A stretch of 35,391 nucleotides of DNA from a virus (Duplodnaviria; Heunggongvirae; Uroviricota; Caudoviricetes): IMG/VR virus record IMGVR_UViG_2778261298_000003, one strand, 5' to 3'. Positions 30,563 through 30,733 of this stretch are shown one piece after another. The notes below the pieces were generated by a model. The model was not told the origin of the DNA. It worked only from the letters and a program-made list of their open reading frames with translations, and did no database searches. Positions within the stretch are counted from its first letter, which is position 1; the number at the start of each line of letters is the position of its first letter. The position numbers and the translations under genes were made by a program.

Positions 30563-30733
30563 ATGTCAGAACGTAAAAACTCAAAATCACGCCGTAATTA
30601 TCTCGTTAAATGTTCCTGCCCAAACTGCACCCAAGAGTCAGAACACAGTTTTTCAAGAGTACAAAAAGGTGCCCTTTTGATCTGCCCTCATTGCAACAAA
30701 GTATTCCAGACAAATCTTAAAGCTGTAGCCTGA
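30563..30733 (+). CDS. Small zinc-ribbon-like protein (56 aa, two CxxC pairs)
   Basis: ATG with AGGAAAA SD 5-7 nt upstream; MSERKNSKSRRNYLVKCSCPNCTQESEHSFSRVQKGALLICPHCNKVFQTNLKAVA; opposite strand to the late operon. Confidence 0.5.
   Translation: MSERKNSKSRRNYLVKCSCPNCTQESEHSFSRVQKGALLICPHCNKVFQTNLKAVA

Follow-up and report, generated by a model that had tools for sequence, protein, structure and literature searches.

A small zinc-ribbon-like protein gene, ynfU, carried with cold-shock genes between Q and the holin gene of a lambdoid prophage

The window, that is, the whole stretch of 35,391 nucleotides analyzed here, contains a lambdoid prophage that is intact, its genes including those for terminase, portal, capsid, tape measure, J, and tail fibre. 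Over 99% of 25 kb, the window shares 98% identity with phage PhiR42_1. Around its lysis cassette, holin, ydfR, lysozyme, Rz, and cspB are encoded on the minus strand, and a short ORF is encoded on the plus strand (Table 1), an opposition of strands that the initial annotation of this DNA had already noticed for the surrounding late genes. A 701-bp region matches E. coli K-12 MG1655 with 100% identity and was found in 1661 of 5426 complete E. coli genomes. The counterpart of the ORF in MG1655 (b4776) lies between essD/essQ and cspB in the Qin prophage, and is annotated as ynfU, encoding 'putative zinc-binding protein YnfU' (WP_211180497.1). The translated ORF matched Pfam PF23499 (YnfU) with 107.3 bits against a cutoff of 27 (3.5e-31, model positions 1-49 of 49) and NCBIfam NF038384, 'YnfU family zinc-binding protein', with 79.4 bits against a cutoff of 36 (1.1e-22). 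The ORF is the already named ynfU of Qin-type lambdoid prophages and not a new gene, an identity that the initial annotation had missed. Compared with YnfU of K-12 Qin, the amino acid sequence and the site between essQ and cspB are the same, whereas the host element here is a PhiR42_1-like prophage, intact and complete in its head, tail, and terminase module, and the one in K-12 is truncated. IS1 or IS200C interrupted the 701-bp region, which comprises ynfU and part of the holin gene, in several of the complete E. coli genomes.

Table 1. Positions of ynfU, its putative signals, and neighboring genes in the window
Feature	Position	Strand	Basis
ynfU CDS, basic Cys4 zinc-ribbon-like small protein	30563..30733	+	ORF, K-12 identity, Pfam and NCBIfam matches
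Shine-Dalgarno sequence CAGGA of ynfU	30551..30555	+	AGGA at 30552-30555, 7 nt 5′ of ATG
TACTGT, E. coli form of conserved TAnnnT, -10-like	30530..30535	+	Upstream alignments; 27 nt 5′ of ATG; would start transcription near 30542-30544
Alternative sigma-70-like promoter TTGAAA-18-AATAAT, 10 of 12 matches	30475..30504	+	Consensus scan; would start transcription near 30511
Phage-21-type holin (essQ/essD), first lysis gene	30128..30343	-	Pfam PF04971, 4.4e-34; divergent from ynfU, 219 nt apart
G+C-rich hairpin AAACCCGC-TCAG-GCGGGTTT	30796..30815		Between convergent ynfU and cspB
cspB with cspA-type thermoregulator leader	31081..31473 (CDS 31097-31312)	-	Rfam RF01766, 158.8 bits against gathering threshold 78
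cspF, third gene of the ynfU> <cspB cspF> cassette	31613..31825	+	ORF, annotation

ynfU was discovered by Ribo-RET, ribosome profiling of stalled initiation complexes, together with western blotting of an SPA-tagged protein (Weaver et al. 2019, 10.1101/511675). In that work, the level of YnfU was the highest among newly found small proteins, in K-12 under ordinary growth and from a defective prophage, and 'a pair of zinc knuckles' was remarked for it (10.1101/511675). The gene was detected again by PIRT-seq, a transposon-reporter screen (PMC12350097). Translation of the ORF, for which the initial annotation had proposed an experimental check, is thus documented in the literature. The later ynfU literature reported no function and just repeated the idea of possible metal binding, as where YnfU is cited as possibly 'metal-binding' (PMC11704790).

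The reading frame runs from ATG at 30563 to TGA at 30731-30733, i.e. 57 codons for 56 amino acids and a stop, and the encoded protein is MSERKNSKSRRNYLVKCSCPNCTQESEHSFSRVQKGALLICPHCNKVFQTNLKAVA. A mechanical ORF list extended the same frame back to an ATG at 30512, giving a form of 73 aa. We rejected this form and favour the one of 56 aa, because the Shine-Dalgarno sequence CAGGA precedes the ATG at 30563 and both are kept across genera, RefSeq annotates 56 aa, and the extension is not conserved. In alignments of upstream regions, the 30563 ATG was preserved in every genus, and the CAGGA/AGGA block in 25-31 loci from many genera. The two knuckles are C19-C22 (CPNC) and C41-C44 (CPHC), with a fifth Cys at position 17, and the N-terminus is basic, with R4, K5, K8, R10, and R11 giving five Arg/Lys among the first 11 residues. 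For the whole protein, a net charge of +7 and a pI of 9.6 were computed. The original description as a 56-aa ORF with AGGA 7 nt upstream, two CxxC pairs, and a basic N-terminus was therefore confirmed on the sequence. Of the window's 196 ORFs with lengths of 40-100 aa, ynfU was the only one with the pattern CxxC-N10-30-CxxC. Since shuffled sequence yielded 0.18 such ORFs per window, the pattern alone is just suggestive, and it is conservation that decides.

Homologs of YnfU are few, amounting to 49 clusters at 90% identity among 5.8 billion proteins, and a deep profile search of 1.84 billion representatives gave 44 clusters (50% identity) at E <= 1e-3. This deep search showed no informative domain fusions, the long proteins with multiple hits being repeats of unrelated zinc fingers. 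The family consensus is RKxxxxRRNYLVKCxCPxCxxxSEHSFSRVQKGxxLxCPxCxxxF, with K5, L14, P20, C22, S26, E27, H28, S29, K35, P42, and C44 as invariant residues; over 30-32 aligned members and 85 loci, C19, C22, C41, C44, S26, E27, H28, S29, and K35 were invariant or nearly so. Loss of the Cys residues or of the frame in relatives, which the initial annotation had named as counter-evidence, was not what we found. The four CxxC Cys were kept in 85 of 85 loci, and all five Cys in ungapped register in 83, the remaining two being without C17 only. Because C17 alone is lost in these two loci, the zinc ligands are likely to be C19, C22, C41, and C44. Across the 85 loci, the median pairwise dN/dS was 0.11 at a dS of about 1.4, and 98.7% of 988 pairs were below 0.3. 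Net charge was within +6 to +8 and pI within 9.4-10.0 for all 67 distinct members. The least conserved part was the tail beyond the second knuckle, which after C44 reads NKVFQTNLKAVA. With its translation taken from the literature, YnfU is a genuine translated small protein under strong constraint. The most distant YnfU-like proteins (P0069, P0074, P0076, and P0083; 53-57 aa) kept the core CPxC...S.HS...LxCPxC and had a hydrophobic, non-basic N-terminus.

AlphaFold2, run on the family alignment, placed strands at residues 13-16, 27-30, 38-40, and 47-49 of YnfU, so that the knuckles follow strands 1 and 3 (pLDDT 64). The model suggests, with moderate confidence, a four-strand zinc-ribbon topology, and together with the scores for PF23499 and NF038384, both well above cutoff, it agrees with the zinc-ribbon-like form that had been proposed from the sequence. 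The best fold matches of the model were the zinc ribbons LysW, ZitP, and PA0128, all of them weak. The N-terminal zinc ribbon of PhnA/YjdM (PA0128, PDB 2akl, Pfam PF08274) was the top Foldseek match and, like YnfU, has two CxxC knuckles in a small beta-ribbon, a likeness already remarked by Weaver et al. (10.1101/511675). However, this match was below threshold (22.4 bits against 30.8 for PF08274, Foldseek E 0.83), and YnfU is without the C-terminal domain of PhnA. When the family profile was compared with PDB sequences, the best match, at E 0.013, was the DNL zinc finger Tim15, and archaeal L44e was matched with E 0.03, both being borderline. Both L44e and the DNL zinc finger (Tim15/Zim17/Hep1; PF05180) resemble YnfU in a core at the first knuckle and the next strand, C..C...SEHS.S...KG. 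With Tim15 the common core is C..C...S.H..S....KG..LI.CP.C, the alignment covering this core only, and in L44e the second knuckle is located about 40 residues further on than in YnfU. Membership in the DNL family was rejected at 13.5 bits against a cutoff of 27 (E 0.074). The hallmark of that family in the Tim15/Hep1 literature, RH...D-N/H-L after the second CxxC, is absent after the second knuckle of YnfU. The similarity to L44e and DNL is a core resemblance below thresholds (E 0.013-0.07), and we treat it as a lead and not as membership. No match to YnfU was found in PADLOC-DB, a defence collection, at E <= 0.01, or in PHROGs v4 at E <= 0.001.

Another family of small Cys-rich proteins found beside csp genes is YmcF/YnfQ (PF23641), with about 60 aa and CPxC-type knuckles, adjoining cspG or cspI and found also in chromosomal islets. 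Unlike YnfU, its Cys pattern is CPCC...CxxC and it is co-oriented with its own csp gene. Homology between the two families was rejected at an hhalign probability of 1.7%. In the window, this family is represented by ynfQ (28016-28201, minus strand), a YmcF-like, Cys-rich ORF of 62 aa beside cspI. The mechanical ORF list gave only its last 36 aa because the annotated frame begins with an Ile codon. ynfN (27713-27940, minus strand) is intact in the window with 76 aa and frameshifted in the MG1655 record compared; it matched phrog_3425 and no Pfam family, and is parted from ynfU by the lysis cassette in this prophage. Two full-length leaders of the cspA thermoregulator type (RF01766) are located on the minus strand, one on cspI (28185-28570) and one on cspB (31081-31473), both within the late-operon region of this apparently intact phage.

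Upstream of ynfU, conservation stops about 70 nt from the gene. Within this region, a TAnnnT motif whose T, A, and final T are near-invariant was found 26-31 nt 5′ of the ATG; its usual form in other genera is TATGGT, embedded in GTGTATGGT, and here the corresponding sequence is GTGTACTGT at 30527-30535. We infer TAnnnT to be a candidate -10 element of a ynfU promoter. The alternative promoter further upstream (Table 1) has a partly conserved AAT in its second hexamer, and the evidence for it is weak, since six such sites occur in the region against 4.2 expected. LexA, sigma-32, sigma-E, and sigma-54 sites were considered for the upstream motif by eye, against their consensus sequences, and none fit across genera. 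A hairpin seen by eye in the ynfU leader, CTGTATA-N8-TATACAG, was rejected as a conserved element, as it occurs in E. coli only, and RNAalifold on 25 sequences found no pairs of a conserved leader structure. Rfam gave no family on ynfU or its flanks, just sub-threshold, terminator-like chance matches. Between the convergent ynfU and cspB genes, the hairpin at 30796..30815 is kept in Escherichia, Citrobacter, and Superficieibacter. It has the appearance of a strong intrinsic terminator for the minus strand and may also serve as a stop for ynfU, making it a possible bidirectional terminator. The ynfU region has a GC content of 0.32-0.37, compared with 0.44-0.51 for the lysis genes and 0.47-0.52 around Q. 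ynfU has its own translation signals and probably its own promoter.

To view the gene outside this prophage, we scanned one genome per species, which gave 97 relatives, 80 of which were kept. Nearly all of them belong to Enterobacteriaceae genera, and the few labels from outside this family are probably due to contaminated or misbinned assemblies. Homologs of the Qin-like holin, lysozyme, Rz, or Q genes were located near ynfU in only 9 of 80 species loci, and 56 of the 80 had a csp gene no more than about 1.4 kb away. A convergent cspB-like gene just downstream was found in 40 of 80 loci, a same-strand cspF-like gene downstream in 35, and an upstream csp gene in 11, so that the typical arrangement is ynfU> <cspB cspF>. 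In 17 loci of other genera, ynfN is located upstream of ynfU, divergent from it and at most 420 nt away. Further out, the flanks are genus-specific chromosomal genes, including those for short-chain dehydrogenase (SDR), LysR, Cys/Met PLP enzyme, ABC, POT, Hsp20, histidine kinase, GGDEF/EAL, FliF, aldehyde dehydrogenase, and DeoR. The distant members P0060 and P0062 are stand-alone chromosomal genes with no csp neighbors. The conserved companions of ynfU are cold-shock genes, not lysis genes. The position antisense to the late operon, which had been put forward at first, thus holds for the prophage studied here and does not hold as a trait of the family, given the lysis or Q genes in 9 of 80 loci, the csp genes in 56 of 80, and the mostly chromosomal flanks. 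A second phage setting was found in Klebsiella phage ST13-OXA48phi12.4 and in a prophage of K. pneumoniae ATCC 13883, where ynfU, without csp genes, is located just upstream of and antisense to a different holin/GH108 lysozyme cassette. This is an independent phage capture.

In phages Tritos, 2H10, HannyBb, and PhiR63_1, YnfU was at least 98% identical and in the same place, although several records, including that of Tritos, leave ynfU unannotated. Tritos, a temperate phage, is functional and yields plaques, and in its lysogen the adjacent CspB, CspI, and YnfN were expressed 27-93 times over the prophage background (PMC9928086). Since Tritos plaques with the same arrangement, an antisense ynfU is compatible with a working late operon. 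In the sister phage PhiR29_1, whose structural module is 96.6% identical, an antisense ompD takes the place of cspF-cspB-ynfU between Q and holin (positions 1255-3729 of locus L093), and an antisense bor follows Rz. The ompD gene of PhiR29_1 indicates that the interval between Q and holin is a slot whose cargo can be exchanged, and that antisense genes are commonplace there. ynfU resembles known lambdoid morons antisense to the late operon, such as bor of lambda and nmpC/ompD between Q and S in DLP12-type elements, in being a short low-GC insert with promoter- and terminator-like signals of its own, in the differing content of its slot among sister phages, and in the expression of neighboring cargo in the lysogen. 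By the Hendrix-type definition, a moron is an autonomous cargo gene that the phage cycle does not need, and of the traits expected of one, ynfU shows variable presence among otherwise near-identical phages, as PhiR29_1 demonstrates, and occurrence outside phages, as the chromosomal homologs demonstrate. In contrast to bor and nmpC/ompD, which encode envelope proteins, the ynfU cargo is an intracellular zinc-ribbon protein, and unlike the compared morons, ynfU is mostly chromosomal in other genera.

Taking these data together, we give a probability of roughly 60% to the explanation that ynfU, whose identity and coding status are effectively settled, is a zinc-ribbon gene captured as cargo of a csp cassette and not a component of lysis, whose product would bind nucleic acid or a partner in Csp-type stress physiology. 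ynfU is a small stand-alone gene of Enterobacteriaceae that mostly resides in a cassette of about 1.3 kb, ynfU> <cspB cspF>, often with ynfN upstream. In Escherichia, lambdoid phages of the Qin/Tritos/PhiR42_1 type would have captured the csp cassette as moron cargo in the slot between antiterminator Q and holin. The orientation of ynfU against late transcription would then be a by-product, since cspB runs in the direction of the late genes and ynfU, without exception, converges on it. We further suppose that YnfU binds one zinc ion per molecule, that it is expressed from its own promoter within about 90 nt upstream, and that the zinc-ribbon face (SEHSF, RVQKG) and the basic tail would contact RNA, DNA, or a larger partner. 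YnfU may act in the same stress physiology, cold and stationary phase, as the neighboring Csp RNA chaperones. In competition during long-term stationary phase, cspB and cspI mutants lose (PMC7406224). Most plausibly, a polycationic zinc ribbon encoded beside RNA chaperones would bind RNA, DNA, or ribosomes in cold or stationary phase. The linkage to csp genes is a modest lead that favors RNA binding and the physiology of cold and stationary phase over control of lysis. ynfU also shows how a chromosomal stress cassette could become cargo of the Q-holin slot in lambdoid phages.

A more specific version, to which we assign a low probability, makes YnfU an accessory partner of the cold-shock cassette, binding RNA or ribosomes and working with CspB/CspF-type proteins in cold or long-term stationary phase, and adds that convergent transcription in the phage-borne copy might shield the holin gene from read-through of strongly induced cspB. 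If true, it would give a function to a conserved orphan protein and to the csp cluster in lambdoid late operons.

The main alternative to nucleic-acid binding is a role with a protein partner, in which the ribbon would bind or modulate a larger protein, possibly as a DNL-like escort (Tim15/Hep1) that keeps Hsp70 soluble. Tim15, which the family profile matched best among PDB sequences (E 0.013) and with which the core is in common, and the weak match to Pfam zf-DNL (E 0.074) point in this direction, and Hsp20 or other stress genes adjoin ynfU in some loci. Most small proteins are also expected to bind larger proteins (Weaver et al., 10.1101/511675). However, the zf-DNL score is half of its cutoff (13.5 bits against 27), the DNL residues are missing from a tail that is the least conserved part of the protein, and the uniform charge of +6 to +8 suits binding of a polyanion better. 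We therefore consider this role unlikely, though the best placed of the functional alternatives.

The initial annotation had expected that transcription of ynfU would collide with late transcription, and this expectation can be developed into a function, in which ynfU transcription, or pairing of its mRNA with the late leader, would insulate holin and lysozyme from leaky read-through, e.g. from cold-induced cspB, or tune lysis timing. The geometry is suitable, as the whole of ynfU lies antisense to the lysis-gene leader and diverges from holin at a distance of 219 nt, cspB is co-oriented with holin and upstream of it with a cold-inducible leader, and the antisense placement recurs at the unrelated holin/GH108 lysozyme cassette of the Klebsiella phage, where there are no csp genes. 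However, 71 of 80 species loci are without Qin-like lysis or Q genes and still keep the gene, its Shine-Dalgarno sequence, and the protein (dN/dS 0.11), which indicates selection on the protein and not on the act of transcription. The antisense ompD in the same slot of the sister phage makes antisense cargo ordinary, and 2-3 independent phage captures are too few to establish a preferred orientation. The collision idea is thus improbable as an explanation of the gene and survives as a minor, secondary possibility, mainly through the second capture, which is csp-less and upstream of a different holin.

Two further proposals are very improbable. A phage late or lysis regulator with Q, RNA polymerase, or holin as its target, comparable to the P2-type Ogr/Delta zinc-finger activators, would account for a small Cys4 protein encoded between Q and holin in several functional phages, but most family members are outside phages, no Ogr_Delta was among the Pfam matches up to E = 1, the family is absent from PHROGs v4, and YnfU is expressed in ordinary growth of K-12 from a defective prophage (10.1101/511675). 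A function in storing or buffering zinc, or one related to iron, is suggested by four to five conserved Cys with the invariant His28, by the 'metal-binding' citation (PMC11704790), and by one preprint that groups ynfU with iron-metabolism genes up-regulated in lag phase, but one structural Cys4 site in a ribbon of 56 aa typically holds zinc that stabilizes the fold and does not serve storage, about 20 annotated flanks had no metal-regulon neighbors, and the 'iron' label of the preprint was given without evidence.

Several other features of the region were observed. A candidate late promoter, TTTGCA-18-TAAAAT, is located directly after the Q stop (32216..32187, minus strand), and a 10-bp G+C-rich hairpin follows it at 32118-32141, which could terminate transcription from the late promoter, from cspF, or from both. 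If this promoter is used, late transcripts from 32187-32216 would cross cspF in antisense, cspB in sense, and ynfU in antisense before reaching holin. From the cspB stop toward the ynfU stop (30796-31096, minus strand), about 280 nt 3′ of cspB are kept in Escherichia, Citrobacter, and Superficieibacter and absent from the Enterobacter and Raoultella loci. This segment folds into several hairpins (RNAalifold, -44.7 kcal/mol), with compensatory changes in 13 of 70 pairs from just 7 sequences, matches no Rfam family, and ends at the terminator 30815..30796; it could be a long structured 3′ UTR of cspB or an sRNA derived from it. Within it (30950-31000, minus strand), a perfect Shine-Dalgarno sequence, AAGGAGG, is located 7 nt 5′ of an ATG at 30985, the start of a mini-ORF of 11 codons, MKQWLAYLAKS, just after cspB. 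This mini-ORF is probably due to chance, since it is present in E. coli and not conserved in Citrobacter. In phage HannyBb, the annotation of the roughly 2 kb from cspF to Q (positions ~5300-7350 of locus L002) lists around twenty ORFs, each about 30 codons long; a tRNA array was considered for this stretch and rejected, as ARAGORN found none. In the tail-fibre assembly region of the window, Rfam IS009 (RF02111) was matched with 221 bits at 3342-3540 on the minus strand.
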